In this document: positions 23,434 through 56,068 of the stretch, one piece after another
Layout of the letters: each line of letters begins with the position of its first letter
Numbering within the stretch: the first letter of the stretch is position 1
Source: Gemmatimonadota bacterium
GTDB taxonomy: Bacteria; Gemmatimonadota; Gemmatimonadetes; Gemmatimonadales; GWC2-71-9
DNA: 64,000 nucleotides
NCBI GenBank assembly: GCA_003222055.1
Contig: QHUT01000054.1
Location: 15,022 to 79,021 of the forward strand
Direction: 5' to 3'
Translations under genes and position numbers: made by a program
The notes under the pieces: generated by a model
The model's database searches: none
Told to the model about the DNA's origin: nothing
The model's input: only the letters and a program-made list of their open reading frames with translations

Positions 23434-23816
23434 GCGCGATCGGCGTCGGCGTCGACCTCGTGGAAGTGTCGCGCGTCGCGGCAATCATCGCCGACAAGGG
23501 CGCACGTGTGTTCCAGCGCCTGCTCACACGCGACGAGCGCGCGTATTGCGAGAGCCGACCCGACCCCGCGACCCACGTGGCCGTACGACTCGCGGCCAAG
23601 GAGGCGGTCTACAAGGCACTGCAGGGCACCGCGGCGGCCCGTGGCATCGGCTGGCGGGAGATCGAGATCACGCGGGCGTCCGACGGCCGGCCCGACGTGC
23701 GGCTCAGCGGCACTGCGGCCGAGCGGGCGCACGAGCTCGGCGTGGGACGCGTGCTGCTGTCGCTCTCCCACACCCACCAGGCGGCCGTAGCGGTGGTTGT
23801 GCTGGAGCGAGTGTGA
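23406..23816 (+). CDS. acpS: Holo-[acyl-carrier-protein] synthase
   Basis: IGVGVDLVEVSRV...ERAYC...RLAAKEAVYKAL...EIEI...SLSHT. The ATG at 23406 lies inside track ORF 22920..23816. Confidence 0.85.
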   Translation: MARGPARLLSAIGVGVDLVEVSRVAAIIADKGARVFQRLLTRDERAYCESRPDPATHVAVRLAAKEAVYKALQGTAAARGIGWREIEITRASDGRPDVRLSGTAAERAHELGVGRVLLSLSHTHQAAVAVVVLERV

Positions 23817-23853
23817 CGGTTTGCCTTGCATTCCCGACAAAATCACTCTAGTA

Positions 23854-41039: not shown

Positions 41040-41930
41040 TCACCGATCCGGGTCGAGCATATCCTCGAACCGCATCCAGCGTCGATAGAAGTACAGGTCG
41101 ACGAAGCCGGTCGGCCCGTTGCGGTTCTTGAGCACGATCAATTCCGTGGCGCCGTCCACGCCGTAGCCCGGGTTGTACATCTCCTCCCGGTACAGCCCGA
41201 GCACCAGATCGGCGTGCTGCTTGATCGCGCCCAGGTGTCCGAAGTCGTCGAGCGCGGGCCTGGCGTTGGGGCGCTTGGCGTCGAACCGGGGCAGCTGCGA
41301 CACCACGACGAGCGCCACCTGGCGCTCGAGCGCCAGCGCCTTGAGCCGCTGCAGCACCAGCGCCAGGTCCTCGTCCTGCGTCGAGCGGGCCACACCCGAA
41401 GGCGACGGCACGAGCTGCAGGTAGTCCACGATCACGAGACCCAGCGGTGGCAGGGGCTCGAGCCGCCGGGCGACGGACTCGAAATCCGGGGCCGCGAGGG
41501 ACAGCGTGGTGAGCGGGAGGTCGCGCAGCCGCACGGCCGCACCGCCGATGCCGGCGCGCGTCTCGTCGTTGAGCTTGGCGCCGCGCAGCTCGTCCACGGC
41601 CACCCGCCCCTCGATCGCGAGCGCGCGCTCCATGAGGCGCTCTTGGTCCATCTCTCCCGAGAACAGCGCGACCGCGGTGCCGCGCTGCGCCACGCGCAGG
41701 GCCAGTCCCAGCGCGAGCGCCGACTTGCCGGAGCCGATGTCGCCTCCCAGCACCACGAGGTCGCGGCGACGCACCCCACCCCCCAACAGCCGGTCGATGG
41801 ACGGGAAGCCCGTGGGGATCGTGTCGCTCGGGACGTCGCCCGGGCGCTGCTGATCCACCCGCGCGACGAGGGACTCGGGTGAGGGTGAAGAGGACTGGGA
41901 CAGGCGTTTCGGGAACCGACGGCTCGGCAT
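41040..41930 (-). CDS. DnaB-helicase C-terminal (RecA-fold) domain protein lacking the N-terminal domain, about 296 aa
   Basis: PTGFPSIDRLLGGGVRRRDLVVLGGDIGSGKSALALGLAL (Walker A), LVIVDYLQLV (Walker B), VVVSQLPR, ADLVLGLYREEMY and LKNRNGPTGFVDLYF. The start is ATG 41930. The track ORF extension to 42005 crosses repeat E. Confidence 0.75.
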   Translation of the reverse strand: MPSRRFPKRLSQSSSPSPESLVARVDQQRPGDVPSDTIPTGFPSIDRLLGGGVRRRDLVVLGGDIGSGKSALALGLALRVAQRGTAVALFSGEMDQERLMERALAIEGRVAVDELRGAKLNDETRAGIGGAAVRLRDLPLTTLSLAAPDFESVARRLEPLPPLGLVIVDYLQLVPSPSGVARSTQDEDLALVLQRLKALALERQVALVVVSQLPRFDAKRPNARPALDDFGHLGAIKQHADLVLGLYREEMYNPGYGVDGATELIVLKNRNGPTGFVDLYFYRRWMRFEDMLDPDR

Positions 41931-41943
41931 GACGGCCCCTCCT

Positions 41944-41989
41944 GTGCGTCTGTGCGTCTGTGCGTCTAGCCTACTATAGATGTAGACGC
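41944..41989. repeat. (GTGCGTCT)x3 octamer array ending in a 7-bp hairpin
   Basis: GTGCGTCTGTGCGTCTGTGCGTCT at 41944..41967. GCGTCTA (41962..41968) pairs with TAGACGC (41983..41989). The GCGTCT core is the same as in element 1675..1790. Confidence 0.85.
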
Positions 41990-42351
41990 GCCGAGCGCGC
42001 TGCAACCGCGATGGCGTCGCCCGCCTCGGCGCCGAGCACCTCGCGGGCCGGCGCGACCAGCTGGGAGAGGACCATCGCGGCGGCGGCGGGTGTGGCGGGC
42101 TCGAGCTGCTGGCGCGCCGCGGCCAGCGCCCGCCGCAGCGGCCCCGACAGGGCGAGGCTCGTGAGGCGGGCCTCGAGGGCTTGGAGCCGGCGACGGTGGT
42201 TCCTCCCCGTCACGGGGTGCGGCGGCAGCAGCGCCTCGGCGCAGCGCACGACCAGCCAGAGCGCGAACAGGTCCTGGCGCGCGGGTCCGCGGACGGCGTC
42301 GGCCACGAGACCGATCAACCGCTCTTCCGCCGGCGTGGTGGCGCGGCTCAC
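41974..42351 (-). CDS. Hypothetical protein, about 125 aa
   Basis: GTG 42351 forms a GTGA overlap with the GT9 stop. G/C-rich third positions. The upstream Arg-rich part of track ORF 41974..42864 is rejected. I recognise no family. Confidence 0.45.
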   Translation of the reverse strand: MSRATTPAEERLIGLVADAVRGPARQDLFALWLVVRCAEALLPPHPVTGRNHRRRLQALEARLTSLALSGPLRRALAAARQQLEPATPAAAAMVLSQLVAPAREVLGAEAGDAIAVAARSARLHL

Positions 42352-43343
42352 GCGACCAGGCGATCCACCGCGGCGGCCACGTCCGCGGGCGTGATGTCGG
42401 CGAGGCAGCGATGGTGCCCGAGGGGGCAGGCGGCCGTGCCGGTGGCCGAGCAGGGACGGCAGTCGAGCTCGCGTTCGAGCACCACGGAGGGGGCCACGTA
42501 CGGGAAGAAGCCGAACTGCGCGACCGTAGGCCCGAACAGCGCGACGACCGGCGTGTCGACGCCGGTCGCCATGTGCATGATGCCCGTGTCCCCCGATACG
42601 ACGACGCGGGCGCATTGCAGCAGGGCGCCCGTCTCCTGGAGCGAGAACTCTCCGGCGGCGCTCGCCGCTGCGCCTCCCGCCACGAGCTGCTGGGCGAGGC
42701 CGCGGTCTTCCGGCCCGCCGACCACGACGGCCCGGTACCCGGCCGTGCGCAGGCGTTCGGCCAGGGCAGCCCAATGCGCGATGGGCCAGCGCTTGGTGGC
42801 GTGGGCGGCGCCGGGCCCGAGCGCCGCGAGCGGCGCGTCGGCGAGGCCGCGCTCCGCGAGCCACTGCGCCACCCGTGCGGTGGCGCCCGCGCCGAGCCAG
42901 AACTCAGGGGGACCGCCGTCGGGGCGGGCGTCGAGCCGGCGCGCGGCCTCGAAGTAGCGCTCGGCCACGGGCGTGGGGCGGCGGTAGGCGTCGAGCTTGG
43001 TGGAGATGAGCAGCGAGCGGGCCAGCTTCCGCTTGCGGTACCCCGACCAGCGGCAGCGCACCAGCAGGCGCAGCCCGGCGCTGCGGATGCTGCCGTGGAG
43101 GTCGAGCCCGTGGGTCGGCGCCAGTGTTCGCAGCCGCCGGGCCAGGTGGCGCAGCGGCTCGTCCTGCTCGAGCGCGACGACTGCGGCGACGTAGGGGTTG
43201 TCGGCGACGAGCGGCGCCATCGCGCGCTTCGTCACATACACGAGCTTCGCCTCGGGGTGGCGGCGGGCGAGCGCCCGCACGAGCGGCGTGGTGAGCAGGA
43301 TGTCGCCGATGGAGCTGAACCGGACGAGGAGGACGCACAGCAC
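42348..43343 (-). CDS. Glycosyltransferase family 9 (LPS heptosyltransferase-like)
   Basis: VLLVRFSSIGDILLTTPLVRALARRHPEAKLVYV...SGDTGIMHMA. GTG start. Confidence 0.85.
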   Translation of the reverse strand: MLCVLLVRFSSIGDILLTTPLVRALARRHPEAKLVYVTKRAMAPLVADNPYVAAVVALEQDEPLRHLARRLRTLAPTHGLDLHGSIRSAGLRLLVRCRWSGYRKRKLARSLLISTKLDAYRRPTPVAERYFEAARRLDARPDGGPPEFWLGAGATARVAQWLAERGLADAPLAALGPGAAHATKRWPIAHWAALAERLRTAGYRAVVVGGPEDRGLAQQLVAGGAAASAAGEFSLQETGALLQCARVVVSGDTGIMHMATGVDTPVVALFGPTVAQFGFFPYVAPSVVLERELDCRPCSATGTAACPLGHHRCLADITPADVAAAVDRLVA

Positions 43344-43399
43344 GTGCCAAATAAGTCCTGCGTTGCCCGGGTTCGCCAGTCGCCATTAGCTTAGGCCTT

Positions 43400-45001
43400 A
43401 TGGCGCGGCCCAAGACCATTCTGTGGGTGGACGACGAAGTGGAGGGGCTCGCCGCCCACCGTCGCTTTCTCGAAGCCCAGGGGTTCAGCATCGCGTCGGC
43501 GGCGCACGGCGACGACGCTCTCGCGCTCCTGCGGCGCCAGTCCTACAGCATCGTGCTGCTCGACGAGCAGATGCCGGGGCGGCGCGGGCTCGAGCTGATC
43601 GGCGAGATCCGGGCGATCGACGCCGGCGTCCCGGTGGTGATGGTCACCCAGAGCGAGGACGAAGGCACGCTGCGCGAAGCGATCGGCATCGAGGTGGACG
43701 ATTACTTGGTCAAGCCGGTCCAGCCGCGCCAGATCCTCTCGGTCGTGACGCGCCTGCTCGAGGGCGACCGCATCCGCCAGCAGCGGCTGGCACGCGACTT
43801 CGTCACCCGGTTCCGCGAGCTCGAAGGGCGCCGCGGCGCGACGCTCGCCTGGCGCGAATGGATCGAGCTGGTCGCCGAGCTGGCCCGCTGGGAGGTGCGG
43901 CTGGCGGCCGCCAACGAGCCCGGGCTGTCGGAGGCGCTGCGCGCGCTGCAGCGGTCGCTTCGCAAGGACTTCGCCGAGTACGTGGCGCGCCAGTATCCCC
44001 GCTGGCTCGCCGCCCCGGAAGGCGACCGGCCGCCGCTCTCGGTCGACGTGGGAGCGGAGTTCCTGGTGCCGGTGCTCAAGGCCGAGGGACGCGCGCTGTT
44101 CGTCGTGATCGACTGCCTCCGGCTCGACCAGTGGGAGGTGCTGCGCGATCTGGTGACGCCGCTGTTCGACGTCGAGGAGTCGCACTACTACAGCATCCTC
44201 CCGACCGCGACGCCGTTCGCGCGCAACGCCATCTTCTCCGGGATGTTCCCGATGGAGATCGCGGCACGGCATCCTGCGTGGTGGGGGCAGCCGTCCGACG
44301 AGGAGAGTCTCAACGCGCACGAGGGTGAGCTGCTCGCCGAGCAGCTGGCGGAGCTCATCGGACGACCGGTCGCGGTGCGTTACGAGAAGCTGTTCAGCTC
44401 GGGCGAGGGGGACCTGGTGCGCCGGCTCCCGGCGCACCTCGCGCAGGACGGCGTCACGGCCCTGGTGTTCAACTTCGTGGACCAGCTCACGCACGGGCGC
44501 TCCGAGAGCGCGATCCTGTACGAGGTCGCGCGCGACGAGGCCGCGCTGCGGAGCCTCACGCGCACCTGGTTCGAGCGCTCCCCCGTGCTCGCGGCGCTGC
44601 GTGAGGCCGAGCGCCGCGGCGTGACGGTGCTGCTCACCACCGACCACGGCTCGATTCACTGCGAGACGCCGGCCACGGTGTACGCCAAGCGCGACGCGAC
44701 GGCCAACCTGCGCTACAAGTTCGGCGAAGATCTCCGCAGCGAGGATCCGGAGGCCGCGATCGCCGTGGAGGAGCTGAAGGCCTTCGGGCTGCCGGGCATG
44801 GGGCTCGGCGTCCGGCTGCTGCTGGCCACGTCGGACCGCTTCTTCGTCTATCCCACCAAGCTGCGCGAGTATCAGGCCCGCTACCGCGGGTCGTTTCTGC
44901 ACGGCGGCGTGACGCCGGAAGAAGTGATTCTCCCGGTCGCCCTGCTCACGCCGCGCGGGCGGTCGGGAGGCGGGCGCGCGGGCGGGGGAGGGACACGCTG
45001 A
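43400..45001 (+). CDS. Response regulator receiver fused to a PglZ/alkaline-phosphatase-superfamily domain (PorX-like)
   Basis: REC domain: ILWVDDEVEG...IVLLDEQMPGRRG...DDYLVKP. C-terminal domain: LFVVIDCLRLDQWEVL...ATPFARNAIFSG...FNFVDQLTHGRS...LLTTDHGS. Confidence 0.8.
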   Translation: MARPKTILWVDDEVEGLAAHRRFLEAQGFSIASAAHGDDALALLRRQSYSIVLLDEQMPGRRGLELIGEIRAIDAGVPVVMVTQSEDEGTLREAIGIEVDDYLVKPVQPRQILSVVTRLLEGDRIRQQRLARDFVTRFRELEGRRGATLAWREWIELVAELARWEVRLAAANEPGLSEALRALQRSLRKDFAEYVARQYPRWLAAPEGDRPPLSVDVGAEFLVPVLKAEGRALFVVIDCLRLDQWEVLRDLVTPLFDVEESHYYSILPTATPFARNAIFSGMFPMEIAARHPAWWGQPSDEESLNAHEGELLAEQLAELIGRPVAVRYEKLFSSGEGDLVRRLPAHLAQDGVTALVFNFVDQLTHGRSESAILYEVARDEAALRSLTRTWFERSPVLAALREAERRGVTVLLTTDHGSIHCETPATVYAKRDATANLRYKFGEDLRSEDPEAAIAVEELKAFGLPGMGLGVRLLLATSDRFFVYPTKLREYQARYRGSFLHGGVTPEEVILPVALLTPRGRSGGGRAGGGGTR

Positions 45002-46804
45002 ATGGGCCGCAGCACCCGGCTGCTGCTGCTGCTCCGTCCGTACACGCCGCTGTTCATCGTCAACCTCGTCGCCACCGTCGTGGCCTCGGTGCTCGATGGC
45101 GTCACGTTCGTGCTGCTCATCCCGTTCCTGCGCACGCTGTTCGGGCAAGAGGCGCTGCCCGCGTCGGGCGGCTCCGCCGTGGAGCGGCTGCTCGCCGCGG
45201 TCGTGGGCCCGGTGCTCGGGGCCGGGGCGCCCCACACCGCGCTGGGCAGCGTCGTGCTGGTGCTCCTGGGCACGCTGGTGCTCAAGAACGTGCTGGCCTA
45301 CGTCGCGGCGCTCACGAGCGTGTCCATCCAGGAGAACGTGGTGCGCGACCTGCGGGTGCGCCTGTTCGAGCACCTGCAGACGCTCTCGCTCGGATTCTTC
45401 CAGCGCACGCGCGGCGGGCAGCTCCTGGCGCGGGTGATCAACGACACCGACCAGGTGAAGACGGCGATCACCGCCGCGCTCGCGTCGCTGCTGCAGAACG
45501 CCAGCCTCATCGTCGTCTACGTCGGGATTCTCGTCGGTCTGTCCTGGCGCCTGACGCTCGTGGCCCTGGTGTGCGCGCCGCTCCTGGTGCTCATCGTGCG
45601 GCCGATGGTCGGCAAGGTGCGCCGCCGCTCGCGCGAGCAGGCCGACCAGCGCGGCGAGCTCACGAGTCTCGTGAGCGAGCTCGTCGCCTCCATCAAACTG
45701 GTACGGGCGTACGTGGCGGAGCGGTTCGAGGCCGATCGGTTTCGCGCGCTCGCCGACCGCTACCGCAAGGGGGTGTTGCGGGCGCAGCGCTATGCGTTGC
45801 TCACGAGCCCGGTGAGCGAGGTGTTTGGCGGGGGAGTCATCGTGTTGATTTTCGCGGTCGGTACGCGACTCGCGCTCGGGCAAACCGCCGTCCTGCGACC
45901 CGAAGTGTTGATCGCGTTCATCGCGGTGGCGCTGCGCCTCATGTCCCCGGTCAAGTCCGTGGCGAATTACCCCACGGCGATGGCCGGCGCGCTCGCGGCC
46001 GCGGATCGCGTGTTCGAGGTGCTCGACCTGAGCCCCGAGGAAGGGGATCGGCCCGGCGAGGTGCCCGCGCGCTTCGAGCGGTGCATCGAATACCGCGGCG
46101 TCACGTTCTCCTACAACGGCCAGGCGCCCGTGCTGCACGGCATCGACCTGGAGGTCCGGCGCGGTCAGGTGGCGGCGGTCGTGGGTCCGTCCGGGGCGGG
46201 GAAGACCACGCTGGTGGACCTGCTGCCGCGCTTCTACGAGCCGACGGGCGGCACGATCCTCGTGGACGGCGTTCCGATCTCACGGTTCACGCGCTCCAGC
46301 CTGCGGTCGCTGATGGGCATCGTCTCTCAGGAGACGATTCTCCTGAACGACACGGTGTTCGCGAACATCGCCTACGGGCGGAGCGATTTCACGCTCGCCC
46401 AGGTGCAGGCCGCGGCCCGCGCGGCCAACGCGGACGCCTTCGTCTCGCAGCTCCCCGACGGCTACGACACGCTCCTGGGGGAACGCGGCACGCGGCTCAG
46501 CGGGGGCGAGCGTCAGCGGATCGCCATCGCACGCGCCCTGCTGCGGGACCCGCCGATCCTGATTCTGGATGAGGCGACCAGCGCCCTGGACATGGAGTCC
46601 GAGCGTCTGGTGCAGGAGGCGATCGACCGGCTGATGGCGCACCGCACGACGTTCGTCATCGCCCATCGGCTCGCCACCGTGCAGCACGCCGACCTGATCG
46701 TGGTGCTCGCCGACGGGCGGGTCGTCGAGCACGGGACGCACGCCACGCTGTACGCGGCGGGCGGGTTGTATCGGCGCCTGCACGACATGCAGTTCCGCCC
46801 CTGA
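45002..46804 (+). CDS. ABC transporter permease/ATP-binding fusion, MsbA-like lipid exporter family
   Basis: Six-TM domain, then GPSGAGKTT, LSGGERQRIAIARAL and ILILDEATSALD. The ATG immediately follows the REC-PglZ stop. Confidence 0.88.
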   Translation: MGRSTRLLLLLRPYTPLFIVNLVATVVASVLDGVTFVLLIPFLRTLFGQEALPASGGSAVERLLAAVVGPVLGAGAPHTALGSVVLVLLGTLVLKNVLAYVAALTSVSIQENVVRDLRVRLFEHLQTLSLGFFQRTRGGQLLARVINDTDQVKTAITAALASLLQNASLIVVYVGILVGLSWRLTLVALVCAPLLVLIVRPMVGKVRRRSREQADQRGELTSLVSELVASIKLVRAYVAERFEADRFRALADRYRKGVLRAQRYALLTSPVSEVFGGGVIVLIFAVGTRLALGQTAVLRPEVLIAFIAVALRLMSPVKSVANYPTAMAGALAAADRVFEVLDLSPEEGDRPGEVPARFERCIEYRGVTFSYNGQAPVLHGIDLEVRRGQVAAVVGPSGAGKTTLVDLLPRFYEPTGGTILVDGVPISRFTRSSLRSLMGIVSQETILLNDTVFANIAYGRSDFTLAQVQAAARAANADAFVSQLPDGYDTLLGERGTRLSGGERQRIAIARALLRDPPILILDEATSALDMESERLVQEAIDRLMAHRTTFVIAHRLATVQHADLIVVLADGRVVEHGTHATLYAAGGLYRRLHDMQFRP

Positions 46805-46805
46805 C

Positions 46806-47672
46806 ATGCTCTCGGGTTTCACCATCGTCCGCAACGCGGTCACGCTCGACTACCCGATCGTGCCCGCGATTCGCTCGATCCTCGACATCTGCGACGAGGT
46901 GGTGGTCAACGTGGGATGCTCGGAGGACGGGACGCGCGACCTCGTCGCCGGCATCGGAGACCCGCGGGTGCGCATCCTCGACCGCGTGTGGGACTTCTCG
47001 CGTGGCGGCGGTACGCTGTCGTTCGAGACCAATCAGGCGATGGCGGCCTGCGGCGGGACGTGGGGCGTCTACATCCAGGCCGATGAGGTGCTACACGAGA
47101 CGGGGGCGGCGCTGATCCGTGATCGCCTGCGCGAATGGGACGCGGACTCGCGAGTCGAGGGTCTGCTGGTCGATTACCTGCACTTCTACGGTGACTTTTC
47201 CACGATCGCGACGGACCGGCATTGGTACCGCCGCGAAGTGCGCGTCGTGCGGCTCGGTGGACAGATCCACTCGTTCCAGGACGCCCAGGGGTTTCGGGTG
47301 GGGGCCGGAGACCGGCGCGTGCGGGCGCGGGTCACGGGCGCCAGGATGTTCCATTACGGGTGGGCGCGGCCGCCGGCATCCATCCGCACCAAGATCCTGG
47401 CCTCCAAGGCGATCTTCACCTCGCCCGTGGACCGGCTGGAGCGCCGGGCGGCGCAAGAAGGGCTCAACTGGCAGCCGTTGCTACGACGGTTCGCCGACGG
47501 CCATCCGCGGGTGGCGCAGCCGTGGATCGCCGCGCGGCGTGCCGCCTGGACCGGCCCCCCCATCCGCCCACGTCGTCTGTACCTGGGCCATGTGCGACTC
47601 TATCTGTCTCACTGGATCGAGCGGCTCACGGGGCACCGCCCGTTCGAATACCGGAACTACGTCGAGGTGTGA
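46806..47672 (+). CDS. Glycosyltransferase (GT2-like, A-type fold)
   Basis: MLSGFTIVRNAVTLDYPIVPAIRSILDICDEVVVNVG...YIQADEV. The family call is by resemblance. Confidence 0.6.
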   Translation: MLSGFTIVRNAVTLDYPIVPAIRSILDICDEVVVNVGCSEDGTRDLVAGIGDPRVRILDRVWDFSRGGGTLSFETNQAMAACGGTWGVYIQADEVLHETGAALIRDRLREWDADSRVEGLLVDYLHFYGDFSTIATDRHWYRREVRVVRLGGQIHSFQDAQGFRVGAGDRRVRARVTGARMFHYGWARPPASIRTKILASKAIFTSPVDRLERRAAQEGLNWQPLLRRFADGHPRVAQPWIAARRAAWTGPPIRPRRLYLGHVRLYLSHWIERLTGHRPFEYRNYVEV

Positions 47673-48643
47673 CGCGCGGGGCCGCTCACGGTCCCCCCTG
47701 TGGCAGCGACCCGGGGCGCGGACCGGCCCGGCGGCAGCCGTCCCGTCTCGAGCAGGCCCCGGTACATGCGCAAGTATTCCTGAGTCATCACGAGGTGTGA
47801 GAAGTGCCGCTCCGCATGCGCGCGGCAGGCGTGCGGGTCCCAGCCGGCCAGGCGGCGGCGCAGCTCCACCAACTCGTCCAGGGTCGTTCCCAATCCGCCG
47901 GTCTCGGCGGATACCAGCTCCGGCAGCGAGCCGCGGGGAGATCCGATGATCGGTGTACCGCTGGCGAGCGCCTCGAGGACGTTCACCGGGCAGGGATCTT
48001 CCCAGCGGACCGGCATCCACAGGCAGCGTGCTCCCGCCAGCAGGTCGCGCTTCCTCGTGCCTCCGACTTTGCCCACGAACTTCACAAAGCGCGAGAGACT
48101 CGGGCGCCATCCGCCCGCGAGTACCAGACGCACGCGACACCGCTTCGCGGCCGCGATGGCCACCTGCCAGCCCTTCACGCTGTGCAATCGGGCCAGGAAG
48201 AGGTCGTAGTCGTCCTTCTGGACGCGGAATTCGTATTCGTCGAGGCGAACGCCGTTGCGCACGAACGCGTCGGTTCCATGACGCCGTGCGTGGTCCTGAC
48301 TGACGCAGATAGTGCGGTCATCGGCCCGCTGCCCGCCGCTCAGGTTTCCGTGCAGCGTCCACACGCTGGGCACGCCGGCTGGAGGGTGTCGAAGCGTGCA
48401 GTGAAAGTGCATGAGGTCGACCGGCTCGCTGACGTAGCGGCGCAGCTCGAACTGCGGCGTCAGCACGTCTTCGGGCGACACTTCGACGACCCGTACGCCG
48501 GCGACGTGACTACCCTTTGGGGCGAGCAGAGTGACCTGGTGACCAAGCTCGATGAGTCCCTGACACAACCACACGACGATGCGCTCCGCGCCCCCGTACT
48601 TCGGAACGGGGAGCCGCACATGATGGAATTGGACGATGTGCAT
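47657..48643 (-). CDS. Glycosyltransferase family 4 (GT-B)
   Basis: MHIVQFHHVRLPVPKYGGAERIVVWLCQGLIELGHQVTLLAP...EALASGTPIIGSPRGSLPELV. It is a paralogue of the next gene. The C-terminal 328 aa of track ORF 47657..48970. Confidence 0.85.
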   Translation of the reverse strand: MHIVQFHHVRLPVPKYGGAERIVVWLCQGLIELGHQVTLLAPKGSHVAGVRVVEVSPEDVLTPQFELRRYVSEPVDLMHFHCTLRHPPAGVPSVWTLHGNLSGGQRADDRTICVSQDHARRHGTDAFVRNGVRLDEYEFRVQKDDYDLFLARLHSVKGWQVAIAAAKRCRVRLVLAGGWRPSLSRFVKFVGKVGGTRKRDLLAGARCLWMPVRWEDPCPVNVLEALASGTPIIGSPRGSLPELVSAETGGLGTTLDELVELRRRLAGWDPHACRAHAERHFSHLVMTQEYLRMYRGLLETGRLPPGRSAPRVAATGGTVSGPARHTST

Positions 48644-48648
48644 GGCCG

Positions 48649-49599
48649 TCAGGCCGGAACGCGTGACGTGGACCTTCCGGCCGGTAGCGTGCCGGTCTCG
48701 AGCAAGTGGCGGTACATGCGCAGGTATTCCTCCGCCATCACCAGGTGCGTGAAGAACCGCTCGGCGTGCGCCCGGCACGCCGCGGGGTCGCGCGTGTGGA
48801 TCTGCTCCGCGGCGGCAATGATCTCTTCCATCGTGTCGCACAGCGCGCCCACGTCGGACGATATCAGCTCCGGCAGCGCGCCGCGTCGCGTGCCCAGCAC
48901 CGGCGTGCCCGAGAGCAGCGCCTCGACGGTGACGAGGCCGAACGGCTCGTCCCATTGCGCCGGGTTCCACAGACAGCGAGCGCGCGCCAGCAGCGCGGCC
49001 TTGGTCGTGCCGTCCACTTCACCGACGTACTGCACCGATCCCGTGAAGCTGGGCCGCCAGCCGCCCGCCACGATCAGGCGGTGCCCGCTGTGCTTCGCGG
49101 CCTCGACCGCCCAGTGATAGCCCTTGGCGCTGTGCAGCTTGCCGAGGAACAGGTCGTACTGCGATACGCGCTTCGGAAACCGGCGGAAGACATAGTCGGC
49201 CGGATCGAGCCCGTTGTACACGAAGGTGTCGCTCTGGTGGCGGCGCGCGTGATCGTGGGACAGAAAGATGCTGTTGGGGGACGGAGGCGCGCCTCCCTTC
49301 AGGTTGCCGTGCACCGTCTGTACCAGCGGCGGGGAGGCGGGCGCGCGGCGCACCGGGAAGTGCACGTGCACCAGGTCGGCGTCACGCGGGACGTACGGCG
49401 CGAGCGCGGCGCCGTCGCCGAACTTGCGGGGCGGCACCGCCACGACCGTCGCCTCCGGGACGCGCGAGCCGGGGGGCGCGAGCAGCGTGACGCGCGCCCC
49501 CAGCGCCGCGAGCCCGCGTACCAGCGCCATGACCACGCGTTGTGGACCGCCGTAACCCTTCGCCGGCAGCGGCTGATGGGAGGCGACCGCGATGTGCAT
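48649..49599 (-). CDS. Glycosyltransferase family 4 (GT-B), tandem paralogue
   Basis: MHIAVASHQPLPAKGYGGPQRVVMALVRGLAALGARVTLLAP...EALLSGTPVLGTRRGALPELI. Confidence 0.85.
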   Translation of the reverse strand: MHIAVASHQPLPAKGYGGPQRVVMALVRGLAALGARVTLLAPPGSRVPEATVVAVPPRKFGDGAALAPYVPRDADLVHVHFPVRRAPASPPLVQTVHGNLKGGAPPSPNSIFLSHDHARRHQSDTFVYNGLDPADYVFRRFPKRVSQYDLFLGKLHSAKGYHWAVEAAKHSGHRLIVAGGWRPSFTGSVQYVGEVDGTTKAALLARARCLWNPAQWDEPFGLVTVEALLSGTPVLGTRRGALPELISSDVGALCDTMEEIIAAAEQIHTRDPAACRAHAERFFTHLVMAEEYLRMYRHLLETGTLPAGRSTSRVPA

Positions 49600-49628
49600 G
49601 GGCGAAATAGTATAACTACCTTTGTCGC
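49600..49628. promoter_or_regulatory. 29-bp divergent intergenic region with a single AT-rich block (AAATAGTATAAC)
   Basis: This is the only non-coding DNA between two divergently transcribed GT4 genes. TATACT (minus sense) lies 9 nt from one ATG, and TATAAC (plus sense) lies 12 nt from the other. Confidence 0.4.
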
Positions 49629-50723
49629 ATGCCAGGCCGGTCGCTCACGATCCTGCAGCTGACGCATCAGGGTGGTGGCTCCGGCTCGACGGTGGCGATC
49701 GCGAACCTGAGCCGGCAGCTCGCGCGGCGCGGGCATCGCGTGCTGATCGGCTGCCGGCCCGGCACCATGCTCGCGGGCCTCGCGCGCGACGCGGGGCTCG
49801 AGGTCGTGCCGCTCGACTTCCGCCGACTCGGGCCCCTGGCCACGGCGCTCGACGCCGTGATGGTGCGCGAGGCCGTCGACGTGGCGAACAGCAACGCCAC
49901 CCGCGACCGCCGCGCGCTCACCTGGCTGCGGTGGCGGCGGCGGCTGCCGCGCCCCTTCGTCGTGACGCGCCACACGATGCCCCTCACGCTGGCGCCGGAG
50001 CTGATCGCGGTGGCGCTCTCGGCCGATCGCACCATCGCCGTGAGCCCCGCGGTGGCGCGCGCGCTGCGCCGGCGCCTGCACCCGGGCGCCCGGCTCCGCG
50101 TCGTACCGAACGGCATCGACTGCGAACGGGTCGACGCGCCGCCTTCGCCCGCGGACCTTACCGCCGCGCGCGCGACCCTGGGCGACCTGGCCGGCCGGCC
50201 GGTCGTGCTCGTGCTGGCGCGCCGCAAGGACCAGCACATCCTGCTGGAGAGCCTCGCGGCCTTGCAGCAGCCGGTCGTGGTTGCGTGCGTGGGCATCGAA
50301 GGTGACGCCGAGCTGCGTGCGATCGAGCGGCGCCTGCCGGCGCGCCATCGCGTCGTGTACGTGCCCTTCACCGACCGGCCCCTCGCCTTCGCCCGCCTCG
50401 CGGACGTCTCCGCTCTGCCGTCGCGCATCGAGGGGCTCTCCATCGCGCTGCTCGAGACCATGGCCCTGGGATTGCCCGCGGTGGCCTCGCGTGCCGGGGG
50501 CAACCCGGACGTCATCACGTCGGGAGAGACCGGCGTGTTGGTGCCGCCGCTCGATGCGCTCGGCTGGGCCCGGGCGCTCGAGCGCGTGCTGGCGGATCGC
50601 GAGTTCGCGCGGCGCATCGCGCGGGCCGGGCGAGACCGCGTGCGGCATGAATTCACGCTGGAGCGTGCCGCCGAGCGGACCGAGGCGGTGTACGGCGAGG
50701 CCCTGGAGCGACGGCGCGGTTGA
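49629..50723 (+). CDS. Glycosyltransferase family 4 (GT-B)
   Basis: LTILQLTHQGGGSGSTVAIANLSRQLARRGHRV...EGLSIALLETMALGLPAVASRAGGNPDVI. Confidence 0.85.
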   Translation: MPGRSLTILQLTHQGGGSGSTVAIANLSRQLARRGHRVLIGCRPGTMLAGLARDAGLEVVPLDFRRLGPLATALDAVMVREAVDVANSNATRDRRALTWLRWRRRLPRPFVVTRHTMPLTLAPELIAVALSADRTIAVSPAVARALRRRLHPGARLRVVPNGIDCERVDAPPSPADLTAARATLGDLAGRPVVLVLARRKDQHILLESLAALQQPVVVACVGIEGDAELRAIERRLPARHRVVYVPFTDRPLAFARLADVSALPSRIEGLSIALLETMALGLPAVASRAGGNPDVITSGETGVLVPPLDALGWARALERVLADREFARRIARAGRDRVRHEFTLERAAERTEAVYGEALERRRG

Positions 50724-51895
50724 GTCCGACGCTCCTCCTCGCCCTCAATTTTCCGCCGTTCGGCGGCGGCATCGCCCGCATGATGGGGGAGGTCGCGCTC
50801 CGCTATCCGGAGCACGCCCTGCTGGTTTCCACGGGAACCTGGCCGGGGAGCGACGCCACCGACCCGCGGGTCCCCCAGACCGTCGACCGGGTGGCGGTGG
50901 GCGCGAAGCGGCTGCGCACCCTGAACGGGCTATTCCGCTGGACCCGGCGCGCCGCCACCCTGGCACGCGGGACGGACCCGGGATTCGCCTGGTGCGACGA
51001 GATCAAGCCCGCGGGGTACGCGGCGGCCTGGCTGCACGCCCGCCGCGGTCTCCCGTTCGGCGTGCTGGCGCACGGGGCGGACTTCCTGCTGCTCCAGGCG
51101 AAGGCACGACGCTCGCGCTTCAAGGGCTGGACGGCGAGGCGGATCCTCGAGCGCTGCGCGGTGGTCGTCGCCAACAGTCGCTGGACTGCGGACCTCGTCC
51201 GAGGGGTCCTCGAGTCCCTCGGCTGCCACGCCCTCGCCGCCGACGTGCGGGTCGTCCACCTCGGGACCACTCCCTCTCGTTTCCGGCCGGGAATCGATCC
51301 GGCGCCGGTGCGGCACAAGTATGGGCTCGACGGAGGCCCGTGGCTGCTCACGGTCGCCCGGCTCGACTTCCACAAGGGGGTCGACACGGTCATCCGTGCG
51401 CTCCCCGCAATCCGGGACGCCGTTCCGGGGACGCGCTATGCCATCGCGGGGATCGGAAGCCGGCGCGGCGCGCTCGAAGCGCTCGTCGCGGAGCTTGGTC
51501 TGGGCGACGCGGTTCGCCTGCTCGGCTTCGTGCCCGACGAGGAGCTGCCGGCGCTGTACAACGCGGCCGACCTGTTCGTGCTCGCCTCCCGGCGACACGA
51601 CCTGCTGGTGGAGGGATTCGGGATCTCGTGTGTAGAGGCATCCGCGTGCGGCCTTCCGGTGATCGGCAGCCGCTGCGGGGGCATTCCCGAGGCCATCCTC
51701 GAGGGGGAAACGGGGCTCCTCGTCGAGCCGGAGGATCCGGCCGCGGTGACGGCGGCGACGGTGCGGGTGCTCGAGGACGAGGCGCTGCGCCACCGCCTGG
51801 GCGCCGCCGGGCGCGCCGCGGTCGAGGGCTACTACAACTGGGACCGGGTCACGGCCGATCTGGTCCGGATCGACCGGGAATTCCGGCGACCGTGA
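50720..51895 (+). CDS. Glycosyltransferase family 4 (GT-B)
   Basis: LLLALNFPPFGGGIARMMGEVALRYP...EGFGISCVEASACGLPVIGSRCGGIPEAI. 4-nt overlap with the upstream gene. Confidence 0.85.
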   Translation: MSPTLLLALNFPPFGGGIARMMGEVALRYPEHALLVSTGTWPGSDATDPRVPQTVDRVAVGAKRLRTLNGLFRWTRRAATLARGTDPGFAWCDEIKPAGYAAAWLHARRGLPFGVLAHGADFLLLQAKARRSRFKGWTARRILERCAVVVANSRWTADLVRGVLESLGCHALAADVRVVHLGTTPSRFRPGIDPAPVRHKYGLDGGPWLLTVARLDFHKGVDTVIRALPAIRDAVPGTRYAIAGIGSRRGALEALVAELGLGDAVRLLGFVPDEELPALYNAADLFVLASRRHDLLVEGFGISCVEASACGLPVIGSRCGGIPEAILEGETGLLVEPEDPAAVTAATVRVLEDEALRHRLGAAGRAAVEGYYNWDRVTADLVRIDREFRRP

Positions 51896-51902
51896 CCGTA
51901 GA

Positions 51903-53096
51903 TTGTTCTCGATGACCACGCTGCTCCTGGCGCAGGACTTCCCTCCGATGGGCGGCGGCATCGCCCGGTTGCATGGCGAGCTGGCCAAGCGGTTTCCTCG
52001 TGGCGACCTCGTCGTCTCCACGCCGGCGGATCCCGATGCGTCGGAGGTCGACGCGGGGTTTGCGGCCGCCGTCGATCGTCTCCCGATCGGCGTACGACGC
52101 ACCAAGACGCTGCCGGCCGTCCTCTTCTGGTCGCGGCGCGCGGCCAGCCTGGCGCGCCAGCATCGCGTCCGCTTCGTGCATTGTGGCAACGTGAAGCCGG
52201 CGGGGTATCCGGCCCGCTGGGTCCACGAGCGCCTGCACATTCCCTACGGGATCTTTTTCCACGGAGCCGACCTGCTCAGCGAGCAGCACAAGATCCGGCA
52301 CTCGCGCCTCAAACGCCGCACGGCCCGCATCATTTTCGGCGGGGCGGCGGTCTTGATGACCAACAGCGCCTGGACCCGCGACCTCGCGCTCTCGCTGCTC
52401 GGCGATTTGGGCCTCGACGGGCACGGCCGGCGGCTCCGCGTCGTGCACCTGGGCACGGACCCGACGTACTTCCGTCCCGGTGTCGATGCGCGCGCGCTGC
52501 GTGACAAGTTCGACCTCCCCGACAACGGCACCCGCTGGCTCGTGACCGTCGCCCGCCTGCAGCAGCACAAAGGCATGGACACGGTGATCGAGGCCCTGCC
52601 GGCCATCCTCGAGCGTGAGCCGGACGTGCGTTACGCGGTTGCCGGAACCGGTCCCGACCGCGAGCGGCTGGAGAAACGGGCACAGCAGCTGCGCCTCGGC
52701 GACCGCGTGCGCTTCCTGGGCGGCGTCGGCGATCGGGACCTGCCGGCGTTCTATAATCTCGCGTCCGTGTACGTCGGCGCGTCGCGGCGCGCCGAGCGGC
52801 TGGGCGTGGAGGGGTTCGGGATCTCGCTGGTGGAAGCCTCCGCGTGCGGGCTGCCGGTGGTAGCGGGCGACTCAGGCGGCGTGTCGGACGCCGTGCGCGA
52901 CGGCGAGACGGGCATTCTCGTGCCTCCCGAGGAGCCAGCGGCCATCGCCGACGCCATCTGCCGTCTGCTGGCGGACCCCGCGGCGGCCAAACGAATGGGA
53001 CAGAACGGCCGCCGGGCGGTGGAGACCTACTTCAACTGGGACCGCGTGGTGCGCGATCTCCGCGACATCGAATCCCAGGCCGTGTCCGGCGCTTGA
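51903..53096 (+). CDS. Glycosyltransferase family 4 (GT-B), tandem paralogue of 50720..51895
   Basis: LLLAQDFPPMGGGIARLHGELAKRFP...EGFGISLVEASACGLPVVAGDSGGVSDAV. Confidence 0.85.
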   Translation: MFSMTTLLLAQDFPPMGGGIARLHGELAKRFPRGDLVVSTPADPDASEVDAGFAAAVDRLPIGVRRTKTLPAVLFWSRRAASLARQHRVRFVHCGNVKPAGYPARWVHERLHIPYGIFFHGADLLSEQHKIRHSRLKRRTARIIFGGAAVLMTNSAWTRDLALSLLGDLGLDGHGRRLRVVHLGTDPTYFRPGVDARALRDKFDLPDNGTRWLVTVARLQQHKGMDTVIEALPAILEREPDVRYAVAGTGPDRERLEKRAQQLRLGDRVRFLGGVGDRDLPAFYNLASVYVGASRRAERLGVEGFGISLVEASACGLPVVAGDSGGVSDAVRDGETGILVPPEEPAAIADAICRLLADPAAAKRMGQNGRRAVETYFNWDRVVRDLRDIESQAVSGA

Positions 53097-53139
53097 GCCG
53101 TCCTGTGGTTCCCGGGCGTCCGGTCTGACGTCTGGTGCG

Positions 53140-54102
53140 ATGGACGACATCCGCTGGTTCGCTCCGGAAGGGTTCTTCGCGCTCGTGGTGCCGCGCCTGC
53201 GGCAGCGGGGCGTCGCGATCGCGCTGGATGGCGACCGGCCCGCGCGACTCGCGATCGCGATGGACGCGCGGGTCGCGGCGCGAGCGTACGCGTACGCGGC
53301 GCGGGCCCGGTGCCCACTGATCCATTACCTGTGGGATCTTCCGCCCTGGCGGTTGGGGCGAGGCCGACACGACTGGGTCTGGCACGTGTTCGGGCGGTAT
53401 CTGCGGGTCCCGCGTTTGGGACGGCGTTACGCGGAACGACCGGGGTACTACAGCCGGCTACGCTTCGTCGCGTCGCACGCCCGGGAGGTGTGGGTGCCGA
53501 GCGCGCAGACCGCCGCCAGCGTGCGGGAGCATTGGGGAATGCAATGCCGCCGGGTGCCGTTCTGCTTCGATTCGGATCGGTTCACCCCCGCGCCGGCGGC
53601 GCGGGCGCGCGGCCTGCTCAGCGTATCCCGTCTGACCGCTCACAAGGACCACGCCGCCGTGATTCGCGCCGCGGCGCGGTTCGTCCCCGAGCTGCCGGTG
53701 CGGATCGTGGGCAGCGGTCCCGAACGCGCCGGGCTCGAGCGGCTGGCGGCGGACCTCGGCGTGGCGTGCACGATCGAGTCCGGGCTGTCGGACGACGACA
53801 TGGTGATGGCCTACCGTAGGGCGGAGGTGGTGGTCTGCCCCAGTCGGTTCGAAGGCTTCGGGCTCACGCCGATGGAGGCCATCGCGTGTGGGAGGCCGGT
53901 GGTCGCGTCCGACATTCCGCCGCACCGGGAGTTTCTGGGGACGGCCCCCCACTTTTTCACAGTGGACGACGACGACAGTCTCGCGGCGGCCATCGCCGCA
54001 GCGCGCGCTGGCCCCGTCCCGACCGACGCGGTGTTGCGCCCGCTGCGCATCGAAGCGGCCGTGGAGCGCTTCAGCGCCGGGCTCGCGCCTTATCTCGGCT
54101 AA
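53140..54102 (+). CDS. Glycosyltransferase (GT-B, GT4-like)
   Basis: SVSRLTAHKDHAAVIRAAARF...PSRFEGFGLTPMEAIACGRPVVASDIPPHREF. Confidence 0.75.
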   Translation: MDDIRWFAPEGFFALVVPRLRQRGVAIALDGDRPARLAIAMDARVAARAYAYAARARCPLIHYLWDLPPWRLGRGRHDWVWHVFGRYLRVPRLGRRYAERPGYYSRLRFVASHAREVWVPSAQTAASVREHWGMQCRRVPFCFDSDRFTPAPAARARGLLSVSRLTAHKDHAAVIRAAARFVPELPVRIVGSGPERAGLERLAADLGVACTIESGLSDDDMVMAYRRAEVVVCPSRFEGFGLTPMEAIACGRPVVASDIPPHREFLGTAPHFFTVDDDDSLAAAIAAARAGPVPTDAVLRPLRIEAAVERFSAGLAPYLG

Positions 54103-55181
54103 CCCGCAGCGTCAGCGGCCTTGGGCGCGGCCGCGGGGCGCGCGCTGATCGCGTACGTGGGACAATGCCGGATGAACTCGCCGTCGATGGGCGACCATTC
54201 CTGTTCGGGTCGCGTGACGACCGCCTTGCCTTGCGCGTCGAGCACGAACATCCCCGGGGGTGCCTGCACCAGGCACGCCCCGCACCCGATGCAGCGTTCC
54301 CGCTGGACCCGGATGGTCACGGCGCGGCGCGGATAGACGCCCGCGTCCCCCGGGGCCGGCCACTCGGCCGGGCGATCGAGCCCGGCAACGGTGGCGCGAT
54401 ATCCTTCCTCGACGATCTCGCGCAAATGGTCGAAGTCGAAGGCCGAAATGTGCTCGACGCGCGGGTGGATGTAATAGATCGGCGGCGTGGTCCACTCGCG
54501 CATTCGCAACTCGAGCAGCGATTGCATCGCGATCTCCGTGGCGCGCGCGAACACCGCCGAGAAGCCGTCCTCCTGTGTGTCCGCGCGAAACGCGTTCGAC
54601 GCGGACACGTCGATCGCGAGGATCACGTCGGCGCCCAGGATGCGTGCCGTGCCGACCGGAAGGTTGTCCACGGTGGCGCCGTCCACGTAGAAGCGCCCCC
54701 GGATCTCGCGCGGCGGCAAAAAGCCGGGAATGGCGCACGAGGCGAACACGGCGTCTTTCACCGGCGCCTCGTCCAGCCCCTCGAGCCCCCAGAAGACCTG
54801 CATCCCCGAGTTCACGTCCACGGTGTTCACGATGAGCGGAAGGTGCAGGTCTTGGAAGGTGGCGTCGCCGACGAGGCGGTGGATCAGGAGGTCGAGGGGC
54901 TCGCGCCGGAACAGCGCGGGGGAGCGCATTCGCTTGAAAGCCATGTCGGCGTGGGCGACCACGAACACGTCCTTGCGGCGCAGCTTGACCGCGACATCGC
55001 GCAGCTCGGCGATGCTCCGCCCCGCGGACCAGGCGGCGCCCACCAACGCGCCCACGCTCGAGCCGACGATCTGCGCCGGCACGAGACCGCGCTCGGTGAG
55101 CGCCTGCAGCACGCCGATGTGGGCGACGCCCTTCATGCCGCCGCCGCCCAACACGAGGGTGAATCGCGTTTGGCTGTCCAC
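54099..55181 (-). CDS. Patatin-like phospholipase with a C-terminal single-cluster ferredoxin-like domain
   Basis: LVLGGGGMKGVAHIGVLQAL (GxGxxG), VGSSVGALVG (GxSxG) and a DGA/DGG-type Asp region. The C-terminus is RCIGCGACLVQAP...RHCPTYAI (CxxCxxC...CP). Confidence 0.75.
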   Translation of the reverse strand: MDSQTRFTLVLGGGGMKGVAHIGVLQALTERGLVPAQIVGSSVGALVGAAWSAGRSIAELRDVAVKLRRKDVFVVAHADMAFKRMRSPALFRREPLDLLIHRLVGDATFQDLHLPLIVNTVDVNSGMQVFWGLEGLDEAPVKDAVFASCAIPGFLPPREIRGRFYVDGATVDNLPVGTARILGADVILAIDVSASNAFRADTQEDGFSAVFARATEIAMQSLLELRMREWTTPPIYYIHPRVEHISAFDFDHLREIVEEGYRATVAGLDRPAEWPAPGDAGVYPRRAVTIRVQRERCIGCGACLVQAPPGMFVLDAQGKAVVTRPEQEWSPIDGEFIRHCPTYAISARPAAAPKAADAAG

Positions 55182-55228
55182 GTGAACCCGCCGCTTGCCC
55201 GGAAGGTGAGCCTCCGAGTAACGTAGTC

Positions 55229-56068
55229 GTGATCCCCAGCCCCGCGCTACTCATGTACCACCGCGTCGTGCGCAGTCGTTGGACTCTGACCGGTCTCGCC
55301 GTCGTCGTCGCACTCGCGCTCGCTGCGCTGGCGGCGCCGCTCATCGCGCCGGGCGATCCCTATCACGGACACCTCGCCGCCGCGTTGCAGGCGCCGTCGC
55401 GCGCCTTCCCGCTCGGCACCGACGCGCAGGGACGCGACGTCCTGAGCCGGCTGCTGTTCGGCGCCCGGTTGTCGCTCGCCGTCGGGCTCGCGAGCCAGGT
55501 GATCGCCCTCGCGGTCGGGCTCACGCTGGGTCTGGCGGCGGGCTTCTACGGGCGCTCCGTGGACGCGGTGGTGATGCGCGCCGCCGATGTGACCCTCGCC
55601 TTCCCGTCCCTCCTCCTGCTCATCGCCGTCGCCGCCGCCGTGAAGCCCACGCTGCCGGTCGTGTGCGTGGTGATCGGCATCGTGGGCTGGGCGGGCATGG
55701 CCCGCCTGGTGCGCGCCCAGGTCCTCGTGGTGCGTCGTCTCGACTACGTCCACGCGGCGCGCGCGTTCGGCGCCTCCGACGCACGCCTCGCCGCGCGCCA
55801 CGTGCTCCCCAACGTGCTGGGCCCGGTGATCGTCGCCGCCACCCTCGGTGTCGGTGGTGCGATCATGGCCGAAGCCGCGCTCTCGTTCGTGGGGCTGGGC
55901 GCGCCACCGCCCACGCCCTCGTGGGGCGCGATGGTGGCCGAGGGCCGCGACCTGCTGCGGGTGGCGCCGTGGGTGTCGCTCTTTCCCGGGCTCGCGATCG
56001 GCCTGACTGTGCTAGCCGTCAATCTCATCGGCGACGGCTTACGTGACGCCCTGGATGTGCGGGCATGA
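55229..56068 (+). CDS. ABC peptide/nickel transporter permease (DppC/OppC-like)
   Basis: LAAPLIAPGDPY...GTDAQGRDVLSRLLFGARLSL...YVHAARAFGAS. Confidence 0.85.
   Translation: MIPSPALLMYHRVVRSRWTLTGLAVVVALALAALAAPLIAPGDPYHGHLAAALQAPSRAFPLGTDAQGRDVLSRLLFGARLSLAVGLASQVIALAVGLTLGLAAGFYGRSVDAVVMRAADVTLAFPSLLLLIAVAAAVKPTLPVVCVVIGIVGWAGMARLVRAQVLVVRRLDYVHAARAFGASDARLAARHVLPNVLGPVIVAATLGVGGAIMAEAALSFVGLGAPPPTPSWGAMVAEGRDLLRVAPWVSLFPGLAIGLTVLAVNLIGDGLRDALDVRA

Follow-up and report, generated by a model that had tools for sequence, protein, structure and literature searches.

A 64,000-nucleotide stretch of DNA from a soil Gemmatimonadota bacterium (contig QHUT01000054.1, positions 15,022 to 79,021; G+C ~71%), hereafter called the window, carries the gene for a response regulator of the PorX family directly in front of the gene for an MsbA-type ATP-binding cassette (ABC) exporter. 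This porX-msbA linkage is phylum-wide in Gemmatimonadota and phylum-specific among the loci compared. We consider it likely that the regulator is the Gemmatimonadota orthologue of PorX, that its gene was relocated in the ancestor of the phylum and now heads an operon of msbA and lipid A/lipopolysaccharide (LPS) genes, and that the protein has the activity described for PorX of Porphyromonas gingivalis and Flavobacterium johnsoniae. In the literature searched we found no paper linking PorX with MsbA and no description of a porX-msbA-lipid A/LPS operon in place of the sprA/kinase-porX-tsaE arrangement of other phyla, so that this arrangement appears to be new.

The porX-msbA unit and its conservation

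The core of the unit comprises the following features (positions are those of the window):

43344..43399, divergent intergenic region of 56 nt, presumed porX-msbA promoter region, as read from the sequence
43400..45001, plus strand, porX orthologue, 533 aa, with a receiver (aa 7-116), a helical bundle and a phosphodiesterase domain of the PglZ/alkaline-phosphatase fold (aa ~206-520)
44999..45004, plus strand, TGA-ATG junction with the porX stop at 44999-45001 and the msbA ATG at 45002 (bases ...ACGC TGA ATG GGC...)
45002..46804, plus strand, MsbA-type ABC half-transporter (transmembrane and nucleotide-binding domain), 600 aa, candidate lipid A-core flippase, Pfam ABC_membrane and ABC_tran

The original prediction, made from the letters of the window, had placed the end of a receiver-PglZ gene at 45001 with the exporter ATG as the next base, and the sequence bears this out. 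Both genes share one reading frame and are separated by a single TGA. A consensus scan detected no sigma-70-type match in the region 43344..43399, such a consensus being uninformative for this phylum, and no terminator-like site inside the porX-msbA unit. Read-through of the porX TGA would yield a 1,134-aa fusion of receiver, PglZ domain and ABC exporter; a few homologues in the database exceed 600 aa (P0003, P0010, P0071).

For the comparison of porX neighbourhoods, one genome per GTDB species was scanned with a profile of diverse PorX sequences, resulting in 80 loci with flanks of up to 10 kb per side. Nineteen of them stem from Gemmatimonadota (Gemmatimonadales, Gemmatimonadaceae, Longimicrobium and Longimicrobiales; PorX identity 85% to 53%) and 61 from other phyla of the FCB (Fibrobacteres-Chlorobi-Bacteroidetes) group, i.e. 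Latescibacterota/Krumholzibacteriia, KSB1, Zixibacteria, Calditrichia, Cloacimonadota, Ignavibacteriota, Chlorobiota, Balneolaceae and Bacteroidota (PorX identity 36-43%). Neighbouring genes were mapped by tblastn with the window proteins, and loci L001 and L002 were added to the 19 reference loci to give a set of 21 Gemmatimonadota loci.

All 19 Gemmatimonadota reference loci, and L001 and L002 too, carry an msbA-like gene on the porX strand downstream of porX, and in 18 of the 19 reference genomes it follows porX directly. In contrast, none of the 61 other FCB loci has an msbA-like gene adjacent to porX; in one of them (L058) such a gene is found 3 kb from porX on the opposite strand. The original prediction had named the conservation of the linkage in relatives as one of its checks, and the outcome is positive. 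The genes are tightly packed, the porX-msbA junction being 0 nt in the window, L001 and L002, a 4-nt overlap in six Longimicrobiales-type genomes and -1 to +34 nt in most remaining Gemmatimonadota loci.

Beyond this pair the Gemmatimonadota loci fall into two types. Gemmatimonadales-type loci, to which the window belongs, have a divergent glycosyltransferase (GT) gene of family GT9 upstream and a 288-aa open reading frame (ORF) and GT4 genes downstream. Longimicrobiales-type loci show the string TonB-like gene, porX, msbA, LpxL/HtrB-family acyltransferase, GT2 genes and ICMT-family methyltransferase, with a GT9 gene sometimes near porX. The acyltransferase, directly after msbA, is matched with 110-115 bits, below the equivalog cut-offs, and the methyltransferase weakly resembles LmtA, a lipid A methyltransferase.

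The surroundings of porX in the other FCB phyla are different. Directly upstream of porX, 24 of the 61 loci (Ignavibacteriota, Chlorobiota, some Bacteroidota) have a gene for a protein of 2,200-2,500 aa, whose annotated example in L048 is SprA/Sov, the T9SS (type IX secretion system) outer-membrane translocon (TIGR04189, 1015 bits). In seven further cases, among them Latescibacteria, Zixibacteria and Ignavibacteriales, a histidine kinase and PorY candidate lies directly upstream; this kinase measures ~416 aa, is separated from porX by -8 to 104 nt and is itself preceded by serS (L026, L027 at 2618-3868, L029, L033, L034, L038 and L042). Downstream of porX we found tsaE, directly adjoining, in 47/61 loci and tsaB in 36, together with rimI or another small gene, accD, and panC or folC. 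L048 illustrates the complete string, with sprA at 2950-9897, porX at 9992-11560, tsaE at 11563-11985 and tsaB at 11982-12656. We met no account of this multi-phylum sprA-porX-tsaE-tsaB string (L028-L079) in the literature searched. Three contigs labelled 'uncultured Hyphomicrobiales' (Alphaproteobacteria; L054, L064, L067) carry an FCB-type porX of 39-41% identity and are probably mis-binned or mislabelled.

Neither sprA nor the upstream kinase, tsaE, tsaB, rimI or accD is present in 428 kb of Gemmatimonadota DNA, and for this reason we regard the Gemmatimonadota arrangement as a genuine swap of conserved contexts. The simplest history would be a single rearrangement in the ancestor of the phylum that has been kept since. 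The two arrangements share that porX precedes an essential housekeeping gene on the same strand with tight packing. They differ in that Gemmatimonadota have a GT9 gene in divergent orientation, or else a TonB-like gene, upstream and an exporter and LPS enzymes downstream, where the other string has the T9SS translocon gene upstream and genes for the t6A modification of tRNA downstream.

The porX-tsaE pair also serves as a control for the meaning of such packing. In 36 of the 47 porX-tsaE junctions the genes overlap or are separated by no more than 10 nt, nine of them showing the same 4-nt overlap as found for porX-msbA, so that the coupling often appears to be translational. TsaE is a tRNA-modification ATPase that is not known to be tied to secretion. 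Judged by this gene order, tight coupling to an essential housekeeping gene seems to be a general habit of porX, and since porX is packed just as closely against the unrelated tsaE, the adjacency to msbA alone cannot be read as a regulatory relation. The most defensible statement is that porX, by heading an essential operon, probably has its co-expression with outer-membrane lipid export secured; regulation of LPS by PorX does not follow from the linkage alone.

Identity of PorX and of the exporter

In Pfam the regulator matches Response_reg (aa 7-116, E 6e-25) and PglZ (aa 231-424, E 2e-18), and the NCBIfam equivalog T9SS_RR_PorX (NF052313) recognises it with 515.5 bits (cut-off 300) in a match that extends from position 2 to the last position, 513, of the model. 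A phmmer comparison with PorX structures gave E 2e-111 for 8TED (F. johnsoniae) and E 2e-106 for 7PV7 (P. gingivalis), with residues 3-519 (7PV7) and 6-519 (8TED) being aligned without large gaps. Window PorX thus has a receiver, a helical bundle and a PglZ domain, lacks a DNA-binding domain and corresponds in architecture and length class to P. gingivalis PorX (7PV7/7PVA) and F. johnsoniae PorXFj (8TED, 8P6F).

The list of catalytic and metal-binding residues was taken from Schmitz et al. (PMC9757075), and the alignment to the structures gave the offset by which the numbering of the chains departs from theirs. The reference residues of P. gingivalis PorX are D58, D239, T272, D361, H365, D415, H416 and H500; window PorX has D55 as phospho-acceptor, T271 as Thr nucleophile and D238, D361, H365, D415, H416 and H501 as metal ligands, and the nucleotide-contacting residues R275 and N358 are present as well. 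At all of these positions, from the phospho-acceptor Asp and the Thr nucleophile to the Zn ligands and the Arg and Asn that contact the nucleotide, window PorX is identical to the P. gingivalis and F. johnsoniae proteins. All 21 Gemmatimonadota and all 61 other FCB sequences have D55, D238, T271, R275, D361, H365, D415, H416 and H501 unchanged, and the only active-site residue to vary is N358, which is replaced in one Gemmatimonadota and one other FCB PorX. A position in the PglZ dimer interface differs more widely, S385 (P. gingivalis numbering) being found in 55/61 other FCB PorX proteins versus 6/21 from Gemmatimonadota; the S385E/S389E mutation stops dimerisation of P. gingivalis PorX.

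In a neighbour-joining tree the Gemmatimonadota PorX proteins form one clade, with identities of at least 50% within the phylum and of 33-46% to the other FCB proteins. We counted 22 clade-specific substitutions. The clade-discriminating positions are distributed evenly over the three domains, leaving the idea of a rewired receiver surface unsupported. An exhaustive search of 1.84 billion cluster representatives returned only 306 at E <= 1e-30, from which we conclude that the full-length PorX family is compact. The nearest named homologues stem from Gemmatimonadales and Gemmatimonadota metagenome-assembled genomes (MAGs), and the best reference-genome locus, from a Gemmatimonadales MAG, encodes a PorX with 85% identity.

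Taken together, these comparisons indicate that the regulator is an intact PorX orthologue, neither decayed nor merely sharing domains with PorX, and they bear out the assignment as PorX-like receiver-PglZ protein in the original prediction. Its further statement that such proteins are known from T9SS control in Bacteroidota holds for that phylum, but is too narrow, as PorX has been reported across the FCB group (PMC9757075). NCBI taxonomy places Gemmatimonadota within this group, making a PorX orthologue in this organism unsurprising.

PglZ domains also occur in proteins of BREX-type (bacteriophage exclusion) phage defence, which share the PglZ/alkaline-phosphatase fold and the metal ligands with PorX (PMC9757075), and the regulator does match the BREX_PglZ_3 family (NF033449) weakly. 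The 82 bits of this match are, however, far below the cut-off of 250. BREX PglZ proteins measure at least 600 aa (PMC9757075), have no receiver and reside within BREX gene sets, whereas window PorX has an N-terminal receiver and 533 aa. Moreover, brxC, pglX and other BREX genes are missing among the Pfam-scanned window ORFs, and the 21 Gemmatimonadota loci contain no BrxC/PglX partners. We thus rejected this identity, to which we assign a practically negligible probability.

The exporter exhibits the Pfam domains ABC_membrane (aa 59-315) and ABC_tran (aa 378-527), and the Walker A Lys, the catalytic Glu and the switch His are all kept. Its best NCBIfam family is MsbA_lipidA (TIGR02203) with 516.8 bits, below the cut-off of 602, closely followed by a HepA family (496.8 bits, cut-off 725) and others. 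The protein is 35% identical to Escherichia coli MsbA. Similarity to PDB entries fails as a test of MsbA versus a generic exporter, as Sav1866 (358 bits) and MsbA (352 bits) score alike. As the TIGR02203 cut-off is missed and Sav1866 is equally similar, we speak of an MsbA-type protein rather than of a proven MsbA, and to this extent the MsbA-like exporter of the original prediction is upheld by its domains and best family.

In E. coli MsbA the basic residues R78, R148 and K299 reportedly touch the phosphates of lipid A, as Mi et al. are said to have described in 2017. The positions of R78 and K299 are occupied by Lys in 21/21 Gemmatimonadota exporters each, and the R148-equivalent position mostly by Q, S, A or T, so that two of the three basic positions are kept. 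The neighbouring genes in both locus types belong to lipid A/LPS biosynthesis, which is why we read the exporter as a probable lipid A-core flippase. E. coli MsbA (b0914; PDB 5TV4, 3B5W) is of the same class, an ABC type IV exporter half-transporter of ~600 aa, and its gene adjoins and precedes lpxK, just as the window gene lies among lipid A/LPS genes. Window msbA comes after a response-regulator gene, which E. coli msbA does not.

Surrounding genes of the window

The following features flank the porX-msbA pair:

42348..43343, minus strand, GT9 (heptosyltransferase-family) gene, divergent from porX, Pfam Glyco_transf_9 (E 4.8e-35)
46806..47672, plus strand, ORF of 288 aa, third gene of the unit, starting 1 nt past the msbA stop, possibly GT-A/GT2-like
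47657..49599, minus strand, two GT4 genes (47657-48643 and 48649-49599) convergent with the porX unit, Pfam Glycos_transf_1 and Glyco_transf_4, gene calls matching L001
49629..54102, plus strand, four GT4/GT1-family genes (49629-50723, 50720-51895, 51903-53096 and one within 52864-54102), assigned by Pfam and NCBIfam GT4

Exactly this layout and the same protein are also present on an independent 9.4-kb metagenome contig (L001). The original prediction described a divergent GT9 heptosyltransferase gene, a GT2-like gene 1 nt past the exporter and a glycosyltransferase cluster. Its GT9 gene is located 56 nt from porX on the opposite strand, the next ORF does begin 1 nt past the exporter, and the cluster contains five GT4 genes and one GT1-family gene within 47657-54102. 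For the GT9 gene the best NCBIfam match is heptosyltransferase II with 130 bits, just under the cut-off of 134.6, and tblastn across the loci indicates that the gene is kept in the divergent position only in Gemmatimonadales-type loci.

Of the description of the third gene, the position stands and the GT2-like label is tentative, as it depends on sub-threshold Pfam hints (Glyco_tranf_2_4, E 0.022; Glycos_transf_2, E 0.032), both below the gathering score. The 288-aa ORF has no NCBIfam match and no real relative in the PDB, and its single-sequence AlphaFold (AF2) model is unusable at a predicted local distance difference test score (pLDDT) of 38. L002 and L003 have a homologue as the next gene behind msbA, L007 and L008 one at a greater distance downstream.

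Several other genes of the window deserve mention. The glycosyltransferase cluster is closed by a gene for a patatin-like phospholipase that ends in a 4Fe-4S single-cluster domain at its C-terminus (54099-55250, minus strand), which occupies the same place in L002. Beside the GT9 gene lie a gene for an ATPase-only protein of the DnaB C-terminal/AAA_25 type without the helicase N-terminal domain (41040-42209, minus strand) and a 125-aa ORF (41974-42351), both of which keep their position in Gemmatimonadales-type loci (L001-L003, L009). Farther away, a pair for outer-membrane assembly of the TAM (translocation and assembly module) type consists of an Omp85/POTRA protein (9580-11847) followed by a TamB-like protein of ~1,685 aa (11220-16274), and two cytochrome c domains and an FTR1-type iron permease are joined in a 724-aa protein encoded at 23791-25965. 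In the region 19300-23800 both strands hold numerous long ORFs that overlap, a common situation at such a G+C content, and gene-caller signals based on G+C at third codon positions (GC3) are weak here; the only clear calls are an NlpC/P60 protein with SH3 domains (19786-21396) and a HAD hydrolase (20937-22115).

Type IX secretion and the output of PorX

No regulator class other than PorX is known to join a two-component receiver to a PglZ phosphodiesterase, and studies of PorX have dealt only with control of the T9SS, in two Bacteroidota species. The importance of the porX-msbA pattern hinges on whether Gemmatimonadota lack this system. Pfam and NCBIfam identified no T9SS genes and no PorY-like kinase among ~50 ORFs of the window, a result that speaks for the window only. 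A SprA profile built from 18 sequences had no match in the 428 kb of Gemmatimonadota DNA versus 32 ORFs in 943 kb of other FCB loci, and a profile of the type A sorting domain, seeded with cargo genes from the other FCB loci, gave no match in the same Gemmatimonadota DNA even at E <= 10 and nine in the other FCB DNA.

The search was extended to the metagenome collection of the Joint Genome Institute (JGI); among the 120 closest PorX clusters, at least 36 are derived from JGI data. The motif IAY[ILV]DDFE is nearly invariant across the 18 SprA sequences and was used as a probe written in G/C-ending codons, whose sensitivity in this lineage we estimate from codon usage to be ~0.4; analogous probes for PorX motifs recover 6-14 of the 21 Gemmatimonadota sequences. 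The SprA probe returned only six contigs, all of them with true SprA at 59-66% G+C, none near 70% and none with porX nearby. A query for the sorting domain in high-GC style yielded 7,947 matches, with no Gemmatimonadota among the ~12 labelled organisms in the top matches, which is suggestive at most; the labels are Zixibacteria, Calditrichia, Krumholzibacteria, Latescibacteria, Eisenbacteria and one Nitrospirales MAG.

The most divergent of the six SprA loci belongs to a divergent SprA family of ~2,060 aa (L083:2432-6889, relatives P0271-P0322), whose identity to distant SprA proteins is only 24-34% and which still keeps IAY[ILV]DDFE. It occurs in genomes of 6-8 Mb, some of them labelled Latescibacteria. 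Homologue search and cluster look-up for this SprA gave the labels Latescibacteria, Krumholzibacteria and 'bacterium' and no Gemmatimonadota label, a result that neither finds nor excludes one there.

No histidine kinase was detected among the Pfam-scanned window ORFs, and none adjoins porX in the 21 Gemmatimonadota loci. The lack of a kinase nearby is uninformative, since PorY of P. gingivalis is likewise unlinked to porX (PGN_2001 vs PGN_1019; PMC4800418). On balance, we judge the absence of a canonical T9SS from this high-GC Gemmatimonadales lineage to be somewhat more probable than its presence.

Phosphorylation, dimerisation and oligonucleotide phosphodiesterase activity have been shown for PorX of P. 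gingivalis and F. johnsoniae (PMC9757075, PMC10951265), and by analogy the Gemmatimonadota protein may work as follows. An unlinked kinase would phosphorylate D55, phospho-D55 together with Zn would drive dimerisation, and the dimer would switch on the Zn-dependent PglZ phosphodiesterase, with small cyclic or linear oligonucleotides as presumable substrates. As PorX has no DNA-binding domain, its output is expected to run via the turnover of nucleotides and contacts with other proteins. The gene itself would have left the sprA/kinase-porX-tsaE-tsaB arrangement in the phylum's ancestor to become the head of the msbA operon. The junctions of 0 nt or 4-nt overlap suggest that both genes are carried on one message, probably with coupled translation.

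Several points weigh against the reading of PorX as head of an msbA-lipid A/LPS operon. Operon status and translational coupling are predicted from junction geometry, and the coupling is not absolute, with a porX-msbA gap of 93 nt in L020 and an extra gene between porX and msbA in L011. The exporter stays below the cut-off of its family, is not separated from Sav1866 and keeps only two of the three basic positions. Finally, for Gemmatimonadetes a review (PMC11285876) remarks that T9SSs 'may also be present', and a T9SS elsewhere in the genome would make the role of PorX entirely conventional.

This last point leads to a conventional explanation, according to which PorX controls such a T9SS by binding to PorL/GldL and by SigP-type regulation. 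Its position before msbA would then be a neutral historical outcome, preserved since splitting an operon with an essential gene is costly. PorX co-occurs with the T9SS throughout Bacteroidetes (PMC9757075), the review lists Gemmatimonadetes as a possible T9SS phylum (PMC11285876), all functional residues of PorX are intact, the clade-discriminating positions reveal no rewired receiver surface and the porX-tsaE coupling provides a precedent for tight packing. On the other hand, SprA, sorting domain, PorY-like kinase and tsaE are all missing from the Gemmatimonadota DNA searched, the GC-codon probe, at its limited sensitivity, met SprA only on contigs of lower G+C, and Gemmatimonadota do not appear among the labelled sorting-domain matches. 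In addition, the primary evidence for a Gemmatimonadetes T9SS could not be traced in the literature searched, one source cited by the review containing no such statement. We consider this explanation a real possibility with less than even chances.

Alternatively, Gemmatimonadota may have lost the T9SS or never had it, and PorX signalling may have been aimed at outer-membrane lipid biogenesis instead. Possible routes are an action on MsbA or on late lipid A/LPS-core steps, either by protein contact or by the nucleotide phosphodiesterase activity. The porX-msbA pair persists while the other neighbours differ between Gemmatimonadales and Longimicrobiales, the sprA and kinase linkages of other phyla are lost, all T9SS searches of Gemmatimonadota DNA were negative and the PorX enzyme is strongly conserved. 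Moreover, T9SS function in P. gingivalis is intertwined with lipid A remodelling and A-LPS (PMC12704123, PMC8545088): T9SS cargo is anchored on A-LPS, and the lipid A 1-phosphatase LpxE reportedly requires a functional T9SS. The argument for such a retargeting is, however, one of genomic context, the tsaE control demonstrates that adjacency to porX need not mean function, and the literature searched contains neither a PorX-MsbA interaction nor an LPS phenotype. We regard a retargeted PorX as rather unlikely.

Still less probable is that the PglZ domain acts as a pathway enzyme, processing a lipid A/LPS precursor or a nucleotide-sugar by-product on the cytoplasmic face before the flip by MsbA. 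The junction geometry would agree with this proposal, as it suggests translational coupling of porX to an exporter and lipid A/LPS enzymes, but T9SS-linked PorX has an identical active site, R275 and N358 included, and this speaks for identical oligonucleotide substrates, and neither a membrane segment nor a lipid-binding feature is evident in window PorX. We consider such a role very improbable.

For the preferred reading, an intact PorX at the head of an msbA-lipid A/LPS operon, the PorX family itself and its occurrence in the FCB group are known, and what is new is the phylum-wide porX-msbA context. Unlike the genes for P. gingivalis and F. johnsoniae PorX, the Gemmatimonadota gene is joined to msbA and lipid A/LPS genes and has no sprA, kinase or tsaE neighbour. 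A sister phylum thus keeps PorX intact, yet has swapped its partners, from secretion pore and tRNA-modification genes to a lipid A exporter and LPS enzymes, and this swap is a natural experiment on what PorX signalling senses and controls. As annotation pipelines will call these genes 'T9SS response regulator PorX', the label merits checking in Gemmatimonadota.

If Gemmatimonadota have a T9SS, the finding shrinks to a lineage-specific operon arrangement. If they do not, PorX must be directed at something else, for which outer-membrane lipid export readily suggests itself. A constrained PorX coupled to a lipid A-core exporter in T9SS-less Gemmatimonadota could then be a signalling enzyme for envelope lipids, i.e. 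for LPS export or remodelling, a proposal we make tentatively and with more doubt than confidence. An LPS-directed PorX would fit the known, unexplained interplay of the T9SS with lipid A and A-LPS in P. gingivalis. If true, it would reveal a T9SS-independent and possibly ancestral role of PorX and the first two-component phosphodiesterase wired to MsbA.

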